The notes: a model not told the origin generated them from the sequence alone. Shown: positions 7,525-16,861, numbered from the stretch's first letter. The stretch is 64,000 nt of DNA from Polaromonas sp. (GCF_043778355.1 NZ_JAYWHI010000031.1:60202-124201); one strand, 5' to 3'. Made by a program: numbers and translations.

Positions 7525-9108
7525 TTAGTTCTTCTTAATATTCCAGTACACCTGCGCGCCGCCTGGCACCAGGCCGGAGATGTTGCTGCGCAGTGCCGCC
7601 GGATTGTTGTACTGGCCCAGATGTACATGCGAGGCGGTTTCAATCGCGCGTGTCTGCAGTTGCTCTGCAAGCTTCTTCTTCTCGGCCTCGGTGCCGGCCT
7701 GGGCGAATTTGACCTTCAGTTCCTCGATGACCTTGTCATCCTGCCAGCCAAACCAGCCCTTGTCGCCGGTGGCATTGAGCATGGCCATGGTCAGCGGGTT
7801 CTGGATGTCGCCGGCGGTCCAGGCTGTCATGAAGGCGTTCCAGCCACCCTTGTCCGGCGCATCTTTCTTGGCGCGGCGTGCCAGCAGCGTGGCCCAGTCG
7901 GACTGCTGCATGTCCACCTTGAAGCCAGCGGCTTCAAGCTGCTGCTTGGCCACCAGCGGCAGCTTGGCGATCGAGGCCAGGTCGGTCGGCCGCATCAGCA
8001 CAATCGGCTCACCCTTGTAACCGGCATCGGCCAGCATCTGCTTGGCCTTGACCGGATTGGCCATGCCGGTATAAATACCGGTGTTGTCACTGGCGTAAGG
8101 CGTGCCGCAAGGAAAAATGCTTTTGCAGTACTTGTACATGCCGGGTGCGCCGACCTGGGTTTTCAGGAAGGCCTCCTGACCCATGGCCACCATGGCGGCC
8201 TGGCGGATCTTCACATTGTCAAACGGCGCGTGCAGGTGGTTGAAGCGGAAGATGTATTGCAGACCGGCTGGCTGCGCATCGACAATCTGCACATCCTTGG
8301 CGGCCTTGAGGGAGGCGTACTGCTCAAAAGCTGGCTGCTCAATGATGTCCACCTCCCCGGCGATCAGCGCATTGAACTGGGTCTGCGGATCACGGATGAT
8401 GATCCACTCGACCCGGTCCAGATAGACGTTTTTGCCGCCGGTTGTACCGTTGGGCGCTTCGCTGCGCGGCTTGTATTTGTCGTTCTTGACATAGACCAGT
8501 TTTTCACCGGGCTTGTACTCGGCCGTGACAAACTTGTAGGGGCCCGAGCCGATGTTCTCCTTGATCTGCTCACTGCCAGGCGTGGCCGCGATACGCGCCG
8601 GCATGATGAAGGGCACATTTGACGAAGGTTTGCCGAGTGCTTCGAGCATCACACCAAACGGCTGGTTGAATTTGATGATGAAGGTCTTCGCATTGGGCGT
8701 CTCATAACTGGCCAGACTTTTGGCCATGACGCCGCCAAAACTGTCGCGGCTGGCCCAGCGCTTGAGCGAGGCCACCACATCCTCGCTGGTGACCGGTTTT
8801 CCATCATGGAACTCAAGCCCGTCGCGCAGGGTAAAGGACCAGACCTTGTTGTCCTTGGACGCGCTGTAGGTGTCCACCATCTGCGGCTTGACCTTGCCTT
8901 CCAGATCGGTGCCGAACAAGGTGTCGTAAATCATGTAACCGTGGTTGCGGGTCACAAACGCCGTGGTCCAGACCGGGTCCAGAATGGTGATGTTCGCGTG
9001 CGGCACCACTTTGAGGGTTTTGGCCTGGGCCTGGACGGCAGCGGGCAGCAGCAAGGAGGACAGCAGCGCGGCAGAAGTGGCCAGAGCGACAAGGGAACGA
9101 CGTTTCAT
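7525..9108 (-). CDS. ABC transporter substrate-binding protein, family 5
   Basis: Signal peptide, IYDTLFG, FTLRDGLEFHDGKPVTSEDVVASLKRW, GSGPYKF. Confidence 0.92.
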   Translation of the reverse strand: MKRRSLVALATSAALLSSLLLPAAVQAQAKTLKVVPHANITILDPVWTTAFVTRNHGYMIYDTLFGTDLEGKVKPQMVDTYSASKDNKVWSFTLRDGLEFHDGKPVTSEDVVASLKRWASRDSFGGVMAKSLASYETPNAKTFIIKFNQPFGVMLEALGKPSSNVPFIMPARIAATPGSEQIKENIGSGPYKFVTAEYKPGEKLVYVKNDKYKPRSEAPNGTTGGKNVYLDRVEWIIIRDPQTQFNALIAGEVDIIEQPAFEQYASLKAAKDVQIVDAQPAGLQYIFRFNHLHAPFDNVKIRQAAMVAMGQEAFLKTQVGAPGMYKYCKSIFPCGTPYASDNTGIYTGMANPVKAKQMLADAGYKGEPIVLMRPTDLASIAKLPLVAKQQLEAAGFKVDMQQSDWATLLARRAKKDAPDKGGWNAFMTAWTAGDIQNPLTMAMLNATGDKGWFGWQDDKVIEELKVKFAQAGTEAEKKKLAEQLQTRAIETASHVHLGQYNNPAALRSNISGLVPGGAQVYWNIKKN

Positions 9109-9240
9109 GACAAATTTTCCTTAGAAACAAGGGGTGGAACAGTCAGGCCGGAAGCACTGGGGCCCCCTGGGTAATGTAACCATAGTTCAGATGCAATATT
9201 CAAGCCACCGGGAAACCACCGTGACAGCGTCCGGTCGGCC

Positions 9241-9954
9241 TCAGATCACACCCAGCCAGCAGGCGCGTTGAATCGCCGACATCTTGTTGTCCACTCTGAG
9301 TTTGGCCATGGCGTTGGCCATGTGGTAATTGACCGTGCGCTCGGTGCAGCGCAGGCGCTCGCCGGTCTGTCGGGCGGTCAGGCCTTCGAAAGCAAGCGCC
9401 AGGCATTCGCTCTCGCGCGGACTGAGCGGACTGCTGGCAGCGGCCAAGGTGCGTTTGAACAGGGGCCAGATGTTGAGCGCCGACCAGACCAGCGCGGCAG
9501 CTTCAGCCCGGTCATGGAACTGGCGAGGACTGAACATGAAACATTCGAAGGCGCGTCCAGAAGGCAGGGGAAACTCAACCCGCACCACGCTCTGAAACCC
9601 GTGGGCCAGCCACAACAGACGCCAGCGGTCGCCCCCCGTGTCTGAATTGCCAATGTGCTGCCAGGCCACCATCGGTGCATCGGACTCCCGCCAGGGCGCG
9701 CCAAAGTCCTGGCTTTCGGCGAGGGCCAGCGCTGGCTCCTGCAGGCGCGGGGGGTGGACCGCTGCCACCACCCGGTCCTGGCGCTGCCCGAAAGGGTCAG
9801 GCCCCAGGACAACGACGGCCTCGACCGCATAGTCGCGCAGGGCAGAAATCCAGTCGGCCAGCATGCTGTCCAGCGCAAGACTGTCAAAGTTGACAGGTTG
9901 GCGCACTTTCAGTTTTCCCCCAGAATTGCGCCCATGTGTGGAGAACTGTCCCAA
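9241..9954 (-). CDS. LuxR-family transcriptional regulator with divergent autoinducer-binding-like N-domain
   Basis: C-terminal HTH LSPRESECLALAFEG...TERTVNYHMANAMAKL; N-domain retains P-x-x-W and HG; start uncertain (9954 TTG, 9906 GTG or 9864 ATG). Confidence 0.85.
   Translation of the reverse strand: MGQFSTHGRNSGGKLKVRQPVNFDSLALDSMLADWISALRDYAVEAVVVLGPDPFGQRQDRVVAAVHPPRLQEPALALAESQDFGAPWRESDAPMVAWQHIGNSDTGGDRWRLLWLAHGFQSVVRVEFPLPSGRAFECFMFSPRQFHDRAEAAALVWSALNIWPLFKRTLAAASSPLSPRESECLALAFEGLTARQTGERLRCTERTVNYHMANAMAKLRVDNKMSAIQRACWLGVI
9879..9898. promoter_or_regulatory. lux-box-like palindrome at luxR 5' end
   Basis: Minus strand ACCTGTCAACTTTGACAGTC, CTGT-N8-ACAG spacing; 15/20 identical to the site upstream of cqsA. 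Confidence 0.5.
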
Positions 9955-10201
9955 AATTTATTCATGATCCAGAATTTCAGATTGCCGGGCAGAACCAGAT
10001 GACAAATTCATTGGCCTTGGCGCTTGACGGACATAGTGACGCGAGGAAAGGGCCGGTTTACAGCTTGACCCCATCGGAAACAAGCGCGTCCTATTTTGCA
10101 CCCGCCACAGTATCGTCGCCGGTAGCCGAAACAGAAACGCTGCATGCATTCGCGAAAGCGGGTGTTCGTACAAGATTGATCATTGACCGAGCGTCCGTGC
10201 C

Positions 10202-11638
10202 GTGGTCTCGGCGAAGGGGATGCCGGGCGGGCAGCGCCCCCACAACGATGACAATTCGCCAGCAAAGCCTAGCCCGACCGCCTGTGTGAACAAACCCGCA
10301 TCCTCCTGCCCCGGCACCACCCATACTCTGCGGGAGGTCCAGACGTCAACGACGCTGCGGGGATCGGCCTGGAGCCGCGTCGTGCGCTGGCTCAGGGAAG
10401 AAGTCATCACCTCGCCGCTGGTGCCGGTACTTCATCCCACGCCCCTGCGTATCAAGGGTCTGGGCTTGTTCACATTGATCGGGCACCCGCTGTTCTGGTG
10501 GGTCTGGTCCGTGTTGCTGCCCCAGCCCTATGAAAATCTGGGTCTCCGGATTTTTACGAGCTCATTGGGACTGCTTTTAATCAGCAACCGGATCAGCCGC
10601 CAGCCGTCGAGTGCTCTTGCCGGCCATGTCTTCAGTGCGGTGATCTGGTTTGAGTTGCCATTTCTTTTTTCCTACATGTACCTTTGCAATGGGGGCAACA
10701 CGGCATGGCTGTCGAGCATGGCGGCAATGATCCTGATCTACTATTTTGTGACGGACTGGCGCATTGCCACCTTGGGTCTGGCTGCAGCAGCCCTGCTGGC
10801 AGGCGCCGTCTTCTGGTTATGGGGTCCCGCCGTGCCACCCATGACGACAACCACCCTGCTGACTGGCGCGATGGTGATTTTTTTCTGTGTGAGCATGGGC
10901 CTCCTGCTGGGCTTGTCTTCGGCCAACCTCCGGCGCGAGCAGTTGAACCACACGCTGACGACCATGGGTATCATGGCGCACGAATTGCGTACCCCCCTGG
11001 CCACCATGTCGCTGATAGGAGACGCTTTGAGAAATGAAGCCCGGCAGCCCAGGAACGCAGGGAGCGATCAACGGTTTGAGCAACTCGTGATCAGACTGCA
11101 CAGTATGGTGCGTACCATGAACCAGCAAATCGACACTCAAATCGTCAACGCGGGCCTGCAGCGCCTGCCGACCCATAAGGAAACAGTGACGGCCTCTGAA
11201 CTGCTGCGCAATGTGGTCAGGGACTATCCCTACCGCAATTCGCGGGAACGGGACAGCGTCGTGCTGGTGCTTCGCAAGGACTTTTCCTTCGAGTCGTCCG
11301 GTCGGCTTTTTACCCAGGTCATCAACAACCTCCTGAAGAATGCTTTTCGTTCTCTGGCGGCAGGCAGTTCTTCCCCCAATCCGGGCGATTTGCGTATCGA
11401 AGTCGGCGTTCTCAACGGCTCCGGTCGAATTTTCATCGAGGATCAGGGGGTTGGCATCGCACCTGAATTGCAGACCCGGATTTTTGAGCCCTTTTTTTCC
11501 ACCGATTACGGTACCGGTCACGGTCTGGGACTGGCCTTTTGCCAGCAGGTCGTGCAAAGCGCTCATGGGAGCATCCGGGTCAAATCGGAACCCGGCCGCG
11601 GCGCCCTGTTCATCATTGAGCTTCCAGTCCTGACCTAG
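10202..11638 (+). CDS. cqsS: CqsS/LqsS-type membrane sensor histidine kinase (alpha-hydroxyketone receptor, no receiver domain)
   Basis: About 6 hydrophobic segments with PQPYENLGLR (CqsS-type PQxYENLGLR), H-box AHELRTPL, N-box NLLKNA, G-boxes DQGVGI and GHGLGL; start uncertain (10202-10220 or later). Confidence 0.85.
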   Translation: MVSAKGMPGGQRPHNDDNSPAKPSPTACVNKPASSCPGTTHTLREVQTSTTLRGSAWSRVVRWLREEVITSPLVPVLHPTPLRIKGLGLFTLIGHPLFWWVWSVLLPQPYENLGLRIFTSSLGLLLISNRISRQPSSALAGHVFSAVIWFELPFLFSYMYLCNGGNTAWLSSMAAMILIYYFVTDWRIATLGLAAAALLAGAVFWLWGPAVPPMTTTTLLTGAMVIFFCVSMGLLLGLSSANLRREQLNHTLTTMGIMAHELRTPLATMSLIGDALRNEARQPRNAGSDQRFEQLVIRLHSMVRTMNQQIDTQIVNAGLQRLPTHKETVTASELLRNVVRDYPYRNSRERDSVVLVLRKDFSFESSGRLFTQVINNLLKNAFRSLAAGSSSPNPGDLRIEVGVLNGSGRIFIEDQGVGIAPELQTRIFEPFFSTDYGTGHGLGLAFCQQVVQSAHGSIRVKSEPGRGALFIIELPVLT

Positions 11639-11653
11639 AAGAATGCGCTTCCT

Positions 11654-12631
11654 ATGAGTTTTCCTCTTTTTCGCCGTCCGGGGACGGTCGTTTTTCTGGA
11701 TGATGATCAGGCCTATCTGGAAATGCTGGCCATGGTGCTGCCGGAGCAATGGCATATCCGGTTCTATCTGCGGCCACAGGTTTGCATCAACCAGTTGCAG
11801 CAGGAGCCTCCGCTGTGGGAGGCAGACGCCTGGGCGCAGCAGGAGATCATTGACAACTGGCGCGCAGGCAGGCCGCTGATACCGCAAATCCTGCGCTACT
11901 GGGCGACCGAGCCGGGGCGTTTTGGGCTGACCCAGGTATGTGTCTTTGACTACGCGATGCCCGGTATGGACGGCCTGCAGGCACTGGGCGAACTCACCGA
12001 CTGGCCAGGGGGACGGGTGCTGCTGACGGGTCAAGCCGACGAACATGTAGCGGTCAGTGCCTTCAACCGGGGACTGATTGACCAGTTCATCGCCAAGCAG
12101 ACGCCCGATATTTCCCAGTACCTCATCGCGGTGGTCCAACGCATGATTGACAGGCCGCAAATGCGCCATTCCCAAATCTGGCGAACCGCGCTCAGTCAAC
12201 CGCAGCACGCCTTGCTACAGGTGCCCTCGGTCGCGCGACAACTTGGCAGTCTGGCCAGCGCCCACTGGGTGGAGCATGTGGTTATTGGCCAGCCTTTCGG
12301 CATTTTGGGCATGGATGCAGAAGGGCGTGTCAGCTGGCTGCAACTGGAATCTGCTGCAGACCTGGCGGAACTGGCGGAGCTGGCTGAAATCCAGGGCGTG
12401 GGCGCTGCGGAGGCGGCAGATATCCGGGATGGCCGGACACTGGTGGATCTGGAGCTCCAGCAGGCCTTGGGGCAGTTAGGCCCTGCCCGGCGGGCTCAGG
12501 CGTTTTCAATCGGCCATGAAGGTTCGTTGCTGGCCGCATTGTTCCCGGTTGACTCCTCCGCAAACCCACCCGGACTGACAGGCTACGGCCAGTGGCTCAG
12601 ACAACACGGCCACCGCACAGTCCAGGACTAG
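11654..12631 (+). CDS. lqsR: LqsR-like response regulator
   Basis: VVFLDDD, FDYAMPGMDG phospho-acceptor, LLTGQADE, AFNRGLIDQFIAK as in LqsR; no HTH output domain; 15 bp downstream of the kinase. Confidence 0.8.
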   Translation: MSFPLFRRPGTVVFLDDDQAYLEMLAMVLPEQWHIRFYLRPQVCINQLQQEPPLWEADAWAQQEIIDNWRAGRPLIPQILRYWATEPGRFGLTQVCVFDYAMPGMDGLQALGELTDWPGGRVLLTGQADEHVAVSAFNRGLIDQFIAKQTPDISQYLIAVVQRMIDRPQMRHSQIWRTALSQPQHALLQVPSVARQLGSLASAHWVEHVVIGQPFGILGMDAEGRVSWLQLESAADLAELAELAEIQGVGAAEAADIRDGRTLVDLELQQALGQLGPARRAQAFSIGHEGSLLAALFPVDSSANPPGLTGYGQWLRQHGHRTVQD

Positions 12632-13914
12632 GATTTTCTGCCGCCATCCTGATTGCCAGCCACTTCGGCAGCTCGTGCACGTCGGGCGATTGGCCAGTCC
12701 CAGGGCTTCACCACAAGCGCCACCTCACGCGTTGCTGCCTCGACGTGGTCGAGTTCGGCGTCGGTCAGGGCCGCGTGCAGCGTGAGCCGCACCATCGCGC
12801 GGTTGCGGCTGGTGGCGGGCGCGCAGAAGATCGAACCGACCACACCGCGTGATTCCAACTCGTCGCGCAACACCATGGCGGCCGCCTCCGTGCCTGCTTC
12901 GAGCGCAATGATCTGTTCGGTGCCGTGGTGAATGGGAAAACCCGAATCGGCAAGACTCTGGCGCAAACGCGCGGTGTTCGCATGCAGGCGCTGGCGCGCC
13001 TCGTCACTGTCGCGGATCACGCCCAGGGTCGCTGACAAACCCGCGATCTCGTGGGGCAGCAGGGAAGAACTGAAAATATTCGGAAAACTTGAAATGAGCG
13101 TGTAGTAGCGCATGCTGGCCGGCGCCGTAAAAAACCCGGCCCTGCCGGCGAAAGCCTTGGCAAGACTTGCGGTAATGAAGTGCACCCGATGCGTCACGCC
13201 AAGCTCCGCGCACAATCCGGCACCCCGAGGTCCATGCGTGCCCAGCGAATGCGACTCATCGACCACGATCATACTGTGATGACGCTCCACCACCTCCAGG
13301 ATGTCCAGCAACGGGCACAAGGCCCCCGTGGTGCTGTACACCGAGTCGACCACAACAACACCGGGGCCGTGACGCTGCAACATGCGGTCCAGGTGTTCGG
13401 GGTCGTTGTGGCGGAACGCGTGGGCTGGCGCCTTTGCGGCACGGGCGCCTTCCCACAAGGACATGTGCGCCAATCCGTCGAGGTAGACCGGCGTGTCCTC
13501 GTCCGCGATGATCTGCAGCAACCCCATGTTGGCCGTGTAGCCAGACTGGCAGAGGTAGCCGTCCTCCTTGCCAAGCCAATGCGACAGATCAGCCTCAAAC
13601 GCATGCACAGGATGGCCGCCCAGAAGAAATACGCCGGACTGCACAACAGCCTCGCTGTCCTGGCGCAGCGCAGTAATCTGCGCCCCAACAATATCCGGAT
13701 GACCGGTGACGTTGAGGTAGTCGTTTCCGTCCAGACGCACCGCATCAGGTCCCACTGCACGGCCGTGCAGCACAAATTTGCCGCCCCACTGGTGCTCCCA
13801 TCGGGGGGCAAAGTCGCGAGTGATACGTTGCTGCAAATGTGCGGACAACGCGGGCTCGACCGCTGGTTTTATTGAAACATCCTGGGCAGAGTGATCAAGA
13901 AGAGGTGTTGGCAT
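12628..13914 (-). CDS. cqsA: CqsA/LqsA-type alpha-hydroxyketone autoinducer synthase (PLP-dependent, AONS-like fold)
   Basis: CQSGYTAN, FRHND, VVDSVYST, VDESHSLGTHG and PLP-lysine motif TASLAKAF match CqsA rather than BioF; convergent with lqsR. Confidence 0.9.
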   Translation of the reverse strand: MPTPLLDHSAQDVSIKPAVEPALSAHLQQRITRDFAPRWEHQWGGKFVLHGRAVGPDAVRLDGNDYLNVTGHPDIVGAQITALRQDSEAVVQSGVFLLGGHPVHAFEADLSHWLGKEDGYLCQSGYTANMGLLQIIADEDTPVYLDGLAHMSLWEGARAAKAPAHAFRHNDPEHLDRMLQRHGPGVVVVDSVYSTTGALCPLLDILEVVERHHSMIVVDESHSLGTHGPRGAGLCAELGVTHRVHFITASLAKAFAGRAGFFTAPASMRYYTLISSFPNIFSSSLLPHEIAGLSATLGVIRDSDEARQRLHANTARLRQSLADSGFPIHHGTEQIIALEAGTEAAAMVLRDELESRGVVGSIFCAPATSRNRAMVRLTLHAALTDAELDHVEAATREVALVVKPWDWPIARRARAAEVAGNQDGGRKS

Positions 13915-13973
13915 GGTGTTACCGTGTGAAGAAGTAACACCATTGAAAAGGAAATTGACAATTTCGCCTCCGT

Positions 13974-13999
13974 GACCCCTGTCAACATTAACAGGGGTC
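13974..13999. promoter_or_regulatory. lux-box-like palindrome upstream of cqsA
   Basis: GACCCCTGT-CAACATTA-ACAGGGGTC, 9-bp perfect arms, CCTGT-N8-ACAGG geometry, centred about 72 bp upstream of the cqsA ATG. Confidence 0.55.
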
Positions 14000-14061
14000 C
14001 AGCACAGAAATGCAGATCAGAGGCGACTCTTTACCAAATTAAGACCTTTTGTACTACCGCG

Positions 14062-15372
14062 TCAGGCGGTTTGTGTGCCTCGGGTCAGACTCAAAGCGGC
14101 CAACGCCATGATTTTTGCGCTGTCCACCAGTTCCTGTATGCCCACATATTCGTCCGGCTGATGCGCCAGATCCAGGATGCCGGGACCGTAGGCAATACAG
14201 GCGTCAAGCTTACCGGTGCGCACAATGTGTTTCTGATCGTAAGTGCCGGGGCTGGAGATGTAGCTGGCCTCGCGGCCCAGCACGCGGGCAATCGCTCGGG
14301 CAGTCGCCAGCACCACCGGCGCATCCTTTGGCGTGGCGGTTGGCACAAAACTCATGATGTCCTTGATGCCGTAGTTGAAACCCGGCCGACTGCGCTTGAG
14401 CTCTTCGAGCATGGCGACGATTTCAGCTTTCACGGCCTCCAGGTTTTCTTCGGCAATGAAACGCCGATCCAGCACCGCGCGGCAGGAGTGCGCGACCACG
14501 GGTGAGGGCAGGTCGCCGGTTGGTCGGTTCAGGGCGTCCATGGCGAACCGTTGTTCGACCTGGCCACCATGCAGGCTGTTGATGTTAAGTGTGCTGACCC
14601 GAGCGCCGGAGGGCTCCACCGGCTCGGCGGTGTGGCGCTGCGACAGACGCGGCTGCAGTTGCGTTTCCAGCAGATGGATGAAAGCACTCATGTGGTTGAT
14701 GGCGCTGTCGCCCAGAAAAGGCATGGAGCCGTGGGCGATCCGCCCCAGGGTTTCAACCTCGCCCCACCAGACGCCGCGATGGCCCAGGCAGATGCGGTCC
14801 ACACCGAGCGGCTCGGGAATGATCACGTGATGCACACGTGGTTTGGAGAAGTAGCCACGCTCGGCCAGGTAACCGACGCCGGCAAACCCGCCCGACTCCT
14901 CATCCACCGTGCCGGAAATTTCCAGTGCACCGGCAAACGGCAGGCCCTCTTCCAAAATCGCCTCGCAGGCAATCACGCTGGAGGCCAGCCCGCCTTTCAT
15001 GTCGCAGGTGCCGCGTCCAAAGATCTTGCCGTCCCGGATGTCGGCGCCGAAGGGGTCGCTGCTCCAGCCGGAGCCTGCTTCGACCACATCGATGTGGCTG
15101 TTGAAATGCACACACTCGCCGCCGGGCTGGCCTTCATAACGCGCCACCACATTGATGCGTGGGTGCGAATCGCGGTCACCCGGCGCGCCAGTGGCGCGTA
15201 TGTATTCGACGGCAAAGCCGCGCCTGGCAAGCCGTTCACCAAGCAAGCGGGCACAGGCTTCGTAGGCGTCGCCGGGCGGATTCGTTGTAGGGATGCGCAC
15301 CAGGTCTTGCGTGAGGGCCACCACCTCATCGCGTTTGGACTCGATGCGTTTGAGCAGGCTGTCGTTGTTCAT
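14062..15372 (-). CDS. M20 family metallopeptidase (ArgE/DapE-like deacylase)
   Basis: HFNSHIDVV, GRGTCDMKGG, VDEESGG, IIPEP, AHQPDEY metal-binding motifs. Confidence 0.9.
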   Translation of the reverse strand: MNNDSLLKRIESKRDEVVALTQDLVRIPTTNPPGDAYEACARLLGERLARRGFAVEYIRATGAPGDRDSHPRINVVARYEGQPGGECVHFNSHIDVVEAGSGWSSDPFGADIRDGKIFGRGTCDMKGGLASSVIACEAILEEGLPFAGALEISGTVDEESGGFAGVGYLAERGYFSKPRVHHVIIPEPLGVDRICLGHRGVWWGEVETLGRIAHGSMPFLGDSAINHMSAFIHLLETQLQPRLSQRHTAEPVEPSGARVSTLNINSLHGGQVEQRFAMDALNRPTGDLPSPVVAHSCRAVLDRRFIAEENLEAVKAEIVAMLEELKRSRPGFNYGIKDIMSFVPTATPKDAPVVLATARAIARVLGREASYISSPGTYDQKHIVRTGKLDACIAYGPGILDLAHQPDEYVGIQELVDSAKIMALAALSLTRGTQTA

Positions 15373-15605: not shown

Positions 15606-16727
15606 CTAACCCTGACGCCACGGCAACCCGCGAAACCGCCAGCCACCGCGCGTGCCGCGATGGGCTTCAGCGTCCGGGTCACCTTCAAAGCCCTCAAGGA
15701 TGTTGTAGGCCTCCAGCCCCAGTTCGGTGGCGCGTTTGGCCGCAGCAATCGAGCGCACCCCGCTTCTGCACAACATCACGGCCTTGCCGCCGGCAGGCAC
15801 GGCGGCCTGCAGGCCTTCGTCGAACTGCGGATTCATGGCCATGCCCGGCCACTGCTTCCAGGCCAGCGCCACCGCACCCGGCACAAAACCGACCCATTCG
15901 CGCTCGGCATCGCTGCGTACGTCAATCAGCACGGCCTGGCCGGCCTGCCACCACTGGCAGGCCAGTTCGGGCGACACATTGCCGGCATAGCCCTGGGCGG
16001 GTTGGACCTGCAGCAAACACGCACCGTCGGCATCCTGACGGCCACTGCCCAGGCCTGAGTTCAGATTCGCCGGCAGCGCCTCGTCGATACGCGCTGGCCG
16101 CGGCAGCTTGAGCTCGGCCATGGTGGCCACGAACTCCGCCAGGCTTTTGCCGGCAATCCGCGGATTGCCGGCCCTCTCCGCAGCGATCGTCGAATGACTC
16201 CGGCCCTGATAATCGTGTCCGGGCCAGACCACGGTGTGGTCTGGCAGTGTGAACAGCCGCTGCGTGATGCTGTGATACAGCGCCTCGGCGCTGCCGGACT
16301 GGAAATCGGTACGGCCACAACCCTTGATGAGCAAGGTGTCGCCGGTAAAAAGATGCTCGCGCCAAAGATAACTGACACTTCCGGCGGTGTGGCCCGGCGT
16401 ATGTATCACCGTGATCTGCTCGCCGCCCACCCGCAGCACGTCGCCCTCCTTGAGCTGACGTGCAGCGCTTGCGATGCCGCAAGCCTCAGGCGCCGCCGTT
16501 TGCGCCCCGGTGTGCTCGGCCAGTTGCCCGGCGCTGGTGATGTGGTCGGCATGGGCGTGGGTTTCAACCGTCCACCGCAGCTTGAGCCCATGGCCTCGAA
16601 GGACGGCGAGATCGCGCTCAAGTTGTTGATCCACCGGGTCGATGATGAGCGCCTCGTGTGTTGCTGGATCGAACAGCACATAGGTGTAGGTGCTGGAAGC
16701 AGGGTCGAAGAGTTGAAGCGGTTTCAT
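15606..16727 (-). CDS. Persulfide dioxygenase (ETHE1-like MBL fold) fused to C-terminal rhodanese
   Basis: ETHAHADH, TPGHT, FTGDTLL, GCGRTDFQ, WPGHDY, then rhodanese DVRS...MLCRSGVRS; start trimmed to ATG 16727. Confidence 0.88.
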   Translation of the reverse strand: MKPLQLFDPASSTYTYVLFDPATHEALIIDPVDQQLERDLAVLRGHGLKLRWTVETHAHADHITSAGQLAEHTGAQTAAPEACGIASAARQLKEGDVLRVGGEQITVIHTPGHTAGSVSYLWREHLFTGDTLLIKGCGRTDFQSGSAEALYHSITQRLFTLPDHTVVWPGHDYQGRSHSTIAAERAGNPRIAGKSLAEFVATMAELKLPRPARIDEALPANLNSGLGSGRQDADGACLLQVQPAQGYAGNVSPELACQWWQAGQAVLIDVRSDAEREWVGFVPGAVALAWKQWPGMAMNPQFDEGLQAAVPAGGKAVMLCRSGVRSIAAAKRATELGLEAYNILEGFEGDPDAEAHRGTRGGWRFRGLPWRQG

Positions 16728-16861
16728 GGCAATTCCGGGTTCGGGCAACGGACACTGACCATCGGCCAATGCATCAGCGCAGCGCCAAGTTTAGACCTGT
16801 GGCACGCGTTCAATCGCAGCGGCTGACCGAGCGCGCAGGTGCAATCACTGAAGCAACAAAT

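Follow-up and report, generated by a model that had tools for sequence, protein, structure and literature searches.

A LuxR-family regulator as the candidate DNA-binding arm of an alpha-hydroxyketone signalling cassette in Polaromonas and related Comamonadaceae

The alpha-hydroxyketone (AHK) quorum-sensing cassette analysed here occupies positions 9,241–13,999 of a 64,000-nucleotide stretch of Polaromonas sp. DNA (GCF_043778355.1 NZ_JAYWHI010000031.1:60202-124201; the whole stretch is called the window below). The sample is a biofilm metagenome, and the nearest relatives of the window are Polaromonas-like Comamonadaceae. Next to a synthase, a histidine kinase, and a response regulator of the Lqs/Cqs type, the cassette carries a gene for a LuxR-family protein. 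With slightly better than even confidence, we propose that this protein is the module's DNA-binding arm. It would bind two palindromes and feed back on cqsA, luxR, and the sensor genes, with its own activity under the control of the LqsR-type regulator. We infer the binding from the type of site, its duplication at the protein's own gene, the joint loss of gene and site in one locus, and the presence of the box in distant lineages. Gene linkage and gene overlap are what suggest the coupling to the regulator. The features of the cassette are as follows.

9241-9906, minus strand: LuxR-family transcription factor, 221 aa; N-terminal domain at about residues 1-157, GerE helix-turn-helix at about 160-215
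9879-9898, no strand: operator 2, a lux-box-type palindrome in luxR codons 4-9, upstream of the kinase/regulator operon
9907-10381, no strand: luxR-kinase spacer of about 475 bp, with divergent promoters inside
~10382-11638, plus strand: CqsS/LqsS-type membrane histidine kinase (HisKA, HATPase_c; start uncertain)
11654-12631, plus strand: LqsR-family response regulator, 325 aa; receiver and non-DNA-binding C-terminal domain
12628-13914, minus strand: CqsA/LqsA-type alpha-hydroxyketone autoinducer synthase, pyridoxal phosphate (PLP)-dependent; NCBIfam NF005526
13912-13947, minus strand: cqsA leader hairpin, TTCAATGG ... CCATG, supported by RNAfold, RNAalifold, and covariation
13977-13996, no strand: operator 1, a 20-bp lux-box-type palindrome, CCCTGTYA-N4-TRACAGGG, upstream of cqsA

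The initial annotation had described an AHK cassette, and its kinase, LqsR-type regulator, and convergent synthase are all present where it placed them; the cqsA and regulator genes overlap by 4 nt. It had also placed luxR as a divergent neighbour directly abutting the kinase. The divergent arrangement holds, but the abutment does not: the spacer at 9907-10381 is longer here than in relatives.

Conservation of the four-gene unit

Related loci were collected by a CqsA-profile scan, keeping one genome per species. The resulting 80 loci come from Polaromonas, Ramlibacter, Caenimonas, Hydrogenophaga, and other Comamonadaceae, a family of bacteria from freshwater and soil. Co-occurrence of luxR with the cassette across genomes had been set beforehand as a point on which the proposal could fail. 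The adjacency was kept in 75 of the 80 loci, where cqsA, the opposite-strand regulator and kinase, and a luxR gene divergent from the kinase follow in the order seen in the window. Four of the five exceptions are contigs ending before the luxR position. The LuxR-family protein is 63–98% identical among the loci, as against 45–90% for the kinase and 47–94% for the regulator, which makes it the best-kept partner after CqsA. Since the genes flanking the cassette in the window are found in only 20–37 of the 80 loci, depending on the gene, the four genes are a conserved unit rather than a conserved neighbourhood.

The remaining exception, L061, is the only locus with enough sequence but without luxR, and it is also the only one without the cqsA box. 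In this locus, luxR is deleted just after the start-codon position, with the upstream ATTGTC region kept, and the cqsA box and leader are gone (13560-13700, 9700-10010). Judged from its sequence, L061 looks like a natural knockout.

The arrangement was also sought around the cqsA genes of a plasmid and chromid collection. The loci of Ralstonia, Cupriavidus, Vibrio, Streptomyces, and Tistrella in this collection have no adjacent LqsR-like regulator, and no such LuxR within 6–7 kb. The linear plasmid of Streptomyces sp. NBC_01426 (L084, 6986-8176) carries an annotated cqsA that is 48% identical and flanked by STAS-domain genes, with no Lqs-type kinase or regulator within 7 kb. On the cqsA side of the cassette, a metallo-beta-lactamase-fold/rhodanese fusion gene (15606-16769, minus strand, in the window) is present in 37 of the 80 loci. 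It also occurs in L061, L094, and L099, and a plain rhodanese gene is found in L095. The association of rhodanese genes with distant or degraded modules could be synteny or a functional link.

Two lux-box-type operators

Lux-box-like sites had been noted at luxR and at cqsA. Both are real, and their position and sequence are kept across the relatives. A search of the 64 kb for CCTGTYA-N4-TRACAGG with at most one mismatch returned two sites, 9880-9897 and 13978-13995, where shuffled sequences lead one to expect 0.02. A weight matrix built on 140 sites from relatives picked out exactly these two in the window, with 27 and 31.5 bits, the cqsA box scoring best; in 71 of the 80 loci, the matrix likewise gave exactly two hits. 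Both sites qualify as lux boxes in the usual sense: inverted repeats some 20 bp long, built around CTG-N10-CAG and close to the promoter of the synthase or regulator gene. Their occupancy by the LuxR-family protein is putative.

The cqsA box, CCCTGTYA-N4-TRACAGGG, is present in 79 of the 80 loci. Its arms are invariant and its centre is variable, and this pattern is the signature of a dimeric DNA-binding protein. From the box, the cqsA start codon is 62 nt away and a conserved TTCAAT element 29 nt, both downstream; the latter gap measures 28–29 nt in 67 of 79 loci. In the relatives, the luxR box lies 30–31 nt from a GACAAT element toward the kinase operon, so that the geometry is common to both sites.

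The second box is located inside luxR, where codons 4–9 read CCT GTC AAC TTT GAC AGT. The sequence CCTGTYAACTTTGACAG occupies these codons in nearly all loci; some Polaromonas lineages have the left arm CCTGCC. Codon usage separates the DNA from the peptide at this position. In all 72 distinct full-length luxR 5' sequences, Pro4 is encoded by CCT, Phe7 by TTT, and Asp8 by GAC, whereas the equally invariant residues Pro36, Pro38, Phe26, and Phe39 show mixed codon use. Because synonymous sites are frozen here and mixed elsewhere, luxR codons 4–9 are constrained as DNA, beyond the peptide that they encode. A bias toward AT-rich codons near the start was considered as the cause of this freezing and rejected: the neighbouring codons vary, and 17 of 18 core positions of the cqsA box are matched. 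We also considered the cqsA palindrome as a terminator of the upstream peptidase gene, and rejected it on finding no terminator-like hairpin. Scans for consensus sigma-70 promoters and for terminators returned nothing at either regulatory region.

The LuxR-family protein

The sole Pfam match of the protein is the GerE helix-turn-helix (HTH) domain (PF00196, E = 1.4e-15, 57 bits against a cutoff of 23.5 bits). Homologues measure 221–237 aa, which points to the GTG at 9906 as the start codon rather than the start of the 237-aa open reading frame. The autoinducer-binding model PF03472 gave no match in the window protein or in 10 distant relatives. When the family profile was compared with the LuxR proteins of the PDB, the matches were confined to the HTH.

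Structure prediction revealed a likeness beyond this domain. For the full-length AlphaFold model, made from a shallow alignment, the best Foldseek matches were the N-acyl homoserine lactone (AHL) receptors QscR, RhlR, LasR, TraR, CviR, and SdiA, over about 240 columns. Matches restricted to the HTH were weaker by three orders of magnitude. The N-terminal domain modelled alone, from a deeper alignment, reached a predicted local distance difference test score (pLDDT) of 94.7 and formed a five-stranded alpha/beta/alpha sandwich. Its Foldseek matches were GAF domains and the ligand-binding domains of TraR, CepR2, QscR, RhlR, LasR, and VqsR, with E-values from 6e-5 to 3e-3, a template modelling (TM) score of 0.65 for QscR, and 9–17% identity to the AHL receptors. 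In the model, the N-terminal domain thus has a GAF-like, autoinducer-receptor-like fold, for which small-molecule binding is putative. Because PF03472 is unmatched, we have not filed the protein as an AHL-type receptor, and the likeness is one of fold only.

At E ≤ 1e-3, a search of 1.84 billion proteins gave only 93 representative clusters for the N-terminal domain family. In the source annotations, the homologues are named SolR or CsgD-family, from HTH similarity. A profile of the distant LuxR relatives, used in a further homology search, returned the close Comamonadaceae group and no additional members. Surveys of LuxR solos define their members by the autoinducer-binding domain in the part of that literature covered here (PMC4338825). 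A family of this kind is invisible to surveys that depend on PF03472.

Occurrence of the LuxR family outside the core clade

Sixteen lineages outside the core clade were compared, namely 12 divergent members with 29–51% identity and four plasmid copies from cultured strains. An LqsR-like regulator adjoins the LuxR gene in 14 of the 16 lineages, and a CqsS/LqsS-like kinase is present in at least 11, while cqsA is found in four. With 14 lineages against four, the LuxR family tracks the LqsR-like regulator far more than the synthase. Among the loci surveyed, there was no case of a LuxR of this family with cqsA alone. The distant regulators can be aligned with almost all of the window LqsR-like protein, and alignment of the kinases begins at the membrane domain.

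The full four-gene module was found in L086, L088, L093, and L094. Seven lineages (L089, L090-92, L095, L096, L097, L102, and the P0247 contig) have the kinase, regulator, and LuxR without the synthase. These trios often form co-directional operons; they are carried by DNA of plasmid or phage character, or occur as tandem duplicates. In L089, L096, L097, and the P0247 contig, the stop codon of the regulator abuts or overlaps the LuxR start. Another three, L098, L099, and L100, retain the regulator and LuxR only. The initial annotation had put the LuxR forward as a candidate output or feedback arm of the circuit. This idea gains strength from the adjacency of regulator and LuxR in 14 of the 16 lineages, including lineages without cqsA, with binding, coupling, and sign of regulation as its predicted parts.

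Traces of the regulatory region persist at this distance. Upstream of cqsA in L086, L088, and L094, whose LuxR proteins are 33–47% identical, we found a box, a gap of about 29 nt, TTCAAT or CTCAAT, and a hairpin. The arms are variant or partly decayed: L086 has the left arm only, L088 reads CCCTGACAA/TTGTCAGGG, and L094 reads CCCGTAA/TTACAGG.

Some further features of these lineages were recorded. Synthase-free loci on mobile-type DNA are L089, L090-L092, L097, L098, L100, L102, and P0247, and one contig carries two tandem trios. The DNA is either plasmid-like (Rep3/ParAB/IS605; IncP pPNAP01 of P. naphthalenivorans CJ2) or belongs to phage-like regions (integrase, DpdA). AHK signalling modules thus exist in a synthase-free form on mobile elements. 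The regulators of one subgroup, 343–349 aa long, carry about 130 additional residues at the N-terminus, a domain that no Pfam model matches. In L086 (774-5632) and L088 (652-5609), cqsA comes last after co-directional genes for a pyridine-nucleotide disulfide oxidoreductase, an alpha/beta hydrolase, and a cytochrome P450. This order hints at a chemically modified AHK signal in the two lineages.

The synthase, the kinase, and the response regulator

The synthase, the kinase, and the response regulator are ordinary members of the Lqs/Cqs families. CqsA scores 552.9 bits over residues 18–408 on NF005526 (cutoff 428), the NCBIfam equivalog model for alpha-hydroxyketone-type autoinducer synthases. 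Its scores on the BioF, Kbl, and serine palmitoyltransferase models fall far under the cutoffs of those models. The class I/II aminotransferase fold is matched by PF00155 (E = 7e-33), and the homologues carry the source name CAI-1 autoinducer synthase. The window CqsA is a member of the AHK autoinducer synthase family, and AHK production is predicted.

Pfam recognized HisKA and HATPase_c in the kinase, the latter ending at residue 476 of 478, and a Pfam scan of the full 478-residue protein found no receiver domain. By its predicted domains, the kinase is of the stand-alone LqsS subtype, not the hybrid Vibrio CqsS subtype. Its identity to the kinases encoded beside cqsA in V. campbellii, Ralstonia, and Cupriavidus is 26–30% over residues ~83–477 (E = 7e-38 to 3e-43). 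The alignment with the cqsA-adjacent kinase of V. campbellii covers residues 87–477 and includes the membrane domain, where six hydrophobic segments were read by eye from the sequence. A sequence search of the PDB with the kinase returned generic kinase cores only, and CqsS was absent from the matches.

For the regulator, the top PDB match was 6sy9, deposited as 'Response regulator' (E = 6e-18, residues 2–248), which we take to be L. pneumophila LqsR. The phospho-acceptor motif VFDYAMPGMDGL aligns to VVDYAMPGMDGL of 6sy9, and the last ~75 residues of the regulator are left uncovered. The Pfam Response_reg match is under the cutoff. Membership of the LqsR family was judged by the phospho-acceptor Asp in a DYAMPGMDG motif together with the family-specific C-terminal domain, and on this basis the window regulator belongs to the family.

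The cqsA leader hairpin

Between TTCAATGG and the start codon, the cqsA leader can form a hairpin in nearly every one of the loci L001–L080, and also in L086, L088, and L094. The 5' arm acts as an anti-Shine-Dalgarno sequence, pairing with the ribosome-binding site and with the CCAU of CCAUG. RNAfold energies range from about -6 to -19 kcal/mol across the loci. The arms differ by lineage yet stay complementary, and RNAalifold showed compensatory changes. Pairing was found in 90.9% of cells, compared with 35–48% when the partners were slid, and the covariation score was 0.50 against at most 0.235, with none of 500 shuffles reaching 0.50. The conservation of the hairpin argues for a transcription start at or before AAUGG, which fits a cqsA box centred near -42.5. 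Rfam has no matching family for the hairpin, and it gave no match anywhere in the window; no tRNA genes were found within the 64 kb either. The hairpin may serve as a thermosensor, or as a target of a small RNA or a protein, and through it AHK synthesis would be controlled after transcription as well.

The expanded luxR-kinase spacer

The luxR-kinase spacer is about 475 bp long in the window, compared with roughly 100–140 bp in most relatives. The expanded form is common only to L001, with 77% identity. A remnant of the ancestral kinase start persists as an ATG at 9964 followed by a stop 12 codons later, and the conserved GACAAT is degraded to GCCCAT. We read the expanded spacer as a fast-evolving segment that took the place of the short spacer of the relatives. 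Because it is unusually long, the kinase start is uncertain. The open reading frame can reach back to 10202; a GTG at 10382 has GGAG 8 nt upstream, and the kinases of relatives align to the window kinase only from residue ~53–60 on. The kinase start, and perhaps kinase expression too, may be altered in this lineage.

In the public run X5, from a study that also includes Hi-C runs, positions 9000–14300 were found at an assembler depth of ~500–1100x with ~1% differences. This suggests that the sample, host-associated or contaminated, is rich in a close relative of the source bacterium.

Proposed mechanism and alternatives

In the mechanism that we favour, CqsA would produce an AHK signal, and the six-helix LqsS/CqsS-type kinase would sense it and exchange phosphate with the LqsR-type regulator. 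A LuxR-family dimer would sit on the two 20-bp CTG-N10-CAG palindromes. Its site at the cqsA promoter would form a feedback loop on signal synthesis, and through its site in luxR codons 4–9 it would regulate its own gene or govern the sensor genes. The activity of the LuxR-family protein would be set by the LqsR-type regulator, itself devoid of a DNA-binding domain, the pair amounting to a split response regulator. The hairpin would gate cqsA translation by hiding the ribosome-binding site and the start codon. The sign of the regulation, activation or repression, we likewise only infer.

We put somewhat below an even chance the idea that kinase, regulator, and LuxR form a three-protein relay. 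Once phosphorylated, the regulator would switch its partner's GAF-like domain, either by contact or by way of a nucleotide that its own GGDEF-like domain binds or makes, and the synthase-free copies on plasmids and phage-like elements would be eavesdropping units. The output domain of the LqsR family resembles a degenerate diguanylate cyclase.

Several observations weigh against the LuxR-family protein as the regulator-controlled arm. L061 is a single event in which the whole cqsA upstream region was rearranged. The divergent plasmid copies L101 and L103 are solo, without a regulator or kinase. The LqsR-type regulators of Legionella, Janthinobacterium, and Ralstonia have no such partner described in the literature covered, so that the coupling would not be universal to the LqsR family. 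Among public runs, the locus was found in metagenome DNA runs and in one high-depth run of unclear kind, and in no RNA run. The position of the box relative to the promoter is ambiguous: its centre falls at about -42.5 for a start in CAAT, and at about -51 to -53 with nnCAAT as the -10 element. A box centred at -42.5 is in the canonical position. For cqsA, the hairpin speaks for transcription beginning in CAAT; at the Polaromonas kinase promoter, TGTGACAAT resembles an extended -10 element. TTGACA forms the right arm of the box, which makes repression by promoter occlusion as possible as activation. Finally, the modelled GAF/AHL-receptor-like fold would fit direct binding of a small ligand equally well.

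This last point leads to an explanation that we regard as unlikely, in which the LuxR-family protein is a second, cytoplasmic receptor of the AHK or a derivative. The GAF-like pocket would take up the ligand, in the manner of LuxR with AHL or of the non-AHL receptors VqmA and PluR/PauR, and cqsA autoinduction would be independent of the kinase and regulator. AHKs are hydrophobic and could enter the cytoplasm. The fold matches both the ligand-binding domains of AHL receptors and the GAF small-molecule sensors, and a sensor domain with a GerE HTH and a CTG-N10-CAG box at the synthase promoter is the classical autoinducer architecture. The family, however, tracks the LqsR-like regulator rather than the synthase (14/16 against 4/16), never standing with cqsA alone. 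The overlap of the regulator gene with luxR points to a protein pair, PF03472 is unmatched, and hallmark residues of the AHL pocket were not recognized by eye in the family alignment.

Similarly improbable, in our estimate, is a local housekeeping regulator or autorepressor that occludes the cqsA promoter and answers to an unrelated cue or to none, upstream of the module. Such a role would explain an operator inside the gene's own coding start, which is typical of autorepression, and a box arm that doubles as a TTGACA -35-like hexamer. It is also in line with the two local sites being the only ones in the 64 kb and in the ~20-kb loci, where no wider regulon is visible. On the other hand, a high-confidence sensor domain and 63–98% identity, above that of the kinase and regulator, argue for regulated activity, and a simple repressor would not need lasting linkage or overlap with the regulator in copies without cqsA. 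We give hardly any credence to fortuitous synteny, with the palindromes serving another factor or being structural, as terminators. The unit is kept while its flanks change and persists with proteins that are 30–50% identical; no terminator-like feature was found, and two sites stand against 0.02 expected. The regulator-controlled DNA-binding arm remains the reading that we prefer.

Relation to known systems

Earlier work had already noted lqs clusters in Polaromonas and further Betaproteobacteria (PMC3376566; PMC10653808, a survey of 6,937 genomes). A LuxR-type partner is not mentioned in PMC3376566, PMC10653808, or PMC3566124. The word 'LuxR' is absent from the latter two, and in PMC3376566 it refers to the AHL LuxR and the TetR-type LuxR of Vibrio. 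Our full-text literature search found no published description of a LuxR partner in an lqs cassette; in the literature searched, neither the dedicated regulator nor its operators nor the leader hairpin are described. The mechanism of LqsR is stated to be unknown (PMC10653808), and the route from signal to gene in LqsR-type systems is an open question. For a large set of Betaproteobacteria from the environment, the locus offers an answer that can be tested. The candidate is a small, dedicated GAF-HTH regulator family whose operators are recognizable near the genes for the synthase and the sensor. Experimental handles are provided by the two defined 20-bp operators and by culturable Polaromonas, Ramlibacter tataouinensis, and Hydrogenophaga.

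In its parts, the cassette resembles the Lqs system of Legionella pneumophila (lqsA-lqsR-hdeD-lqsS, signal LAI-1), which also has a PLP-dependent synthase, a non-hybrid six-helix kinase, and a separate, non-DNA-binding LqsR-type regulator (PMC3376566; PMC10653808). The window cassette differs in having another gene order, no hdeD, and, in addition, the LuxR-family gene with its two lux-box operators. For Legionella, a link to transcription is reported, in the part of the literature covered, through unlinked factors such as LvbR. With the Vibrio CqsA/CqsS system, the window shares a synthase that is 44% identical to V. campbellii CqsA and a sensor domain that is 26% identical over residues 87–477. 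Vibrio CqsS feeds the shared LuxU-LuxO-Qrr-HapR/LuxR(TetR) cascade (PMC3376566), and the Vibrio locus differs in having no LqsR-like or LuxR(GerE)-type gene within 6 kb. The JqsA/JqsS/JqsR system of Janthinobacterium resembles the window in its adjacent response regulator gene and differs in that no LuxR-type partner is described (PMC3566124).

PhcX of Ralstonia solanacearum belongs to the same response-regulator family and has a large regulon despite lacking a DNA-binding domain (PMC10653808). It differs from the window regulator in its linkage to the phc genes, and no transcription factor has been reported as its partner. According to the PhcX study of 2023, the regulatory mechanism "awaits further investigation" (PMC10653808).

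LuxI/LuxR circuits and LuxR solos share with the window a two-domain regulator, a 20-bp CTG-N10-CAG repeat at the synthase promoter, and an autoregulatory logic. LuxR solos for non-AHL signals are also known, such as VqmA with 3,5-dimethylpyrazin-2-ol (DPO) and PluR/PauR. The window regulator differs from LuxI/LuxR in the absence of LuxI and of a PF03472 match, in its tie to a two-component pair, and in an operator that lies inside its own coding sequence.

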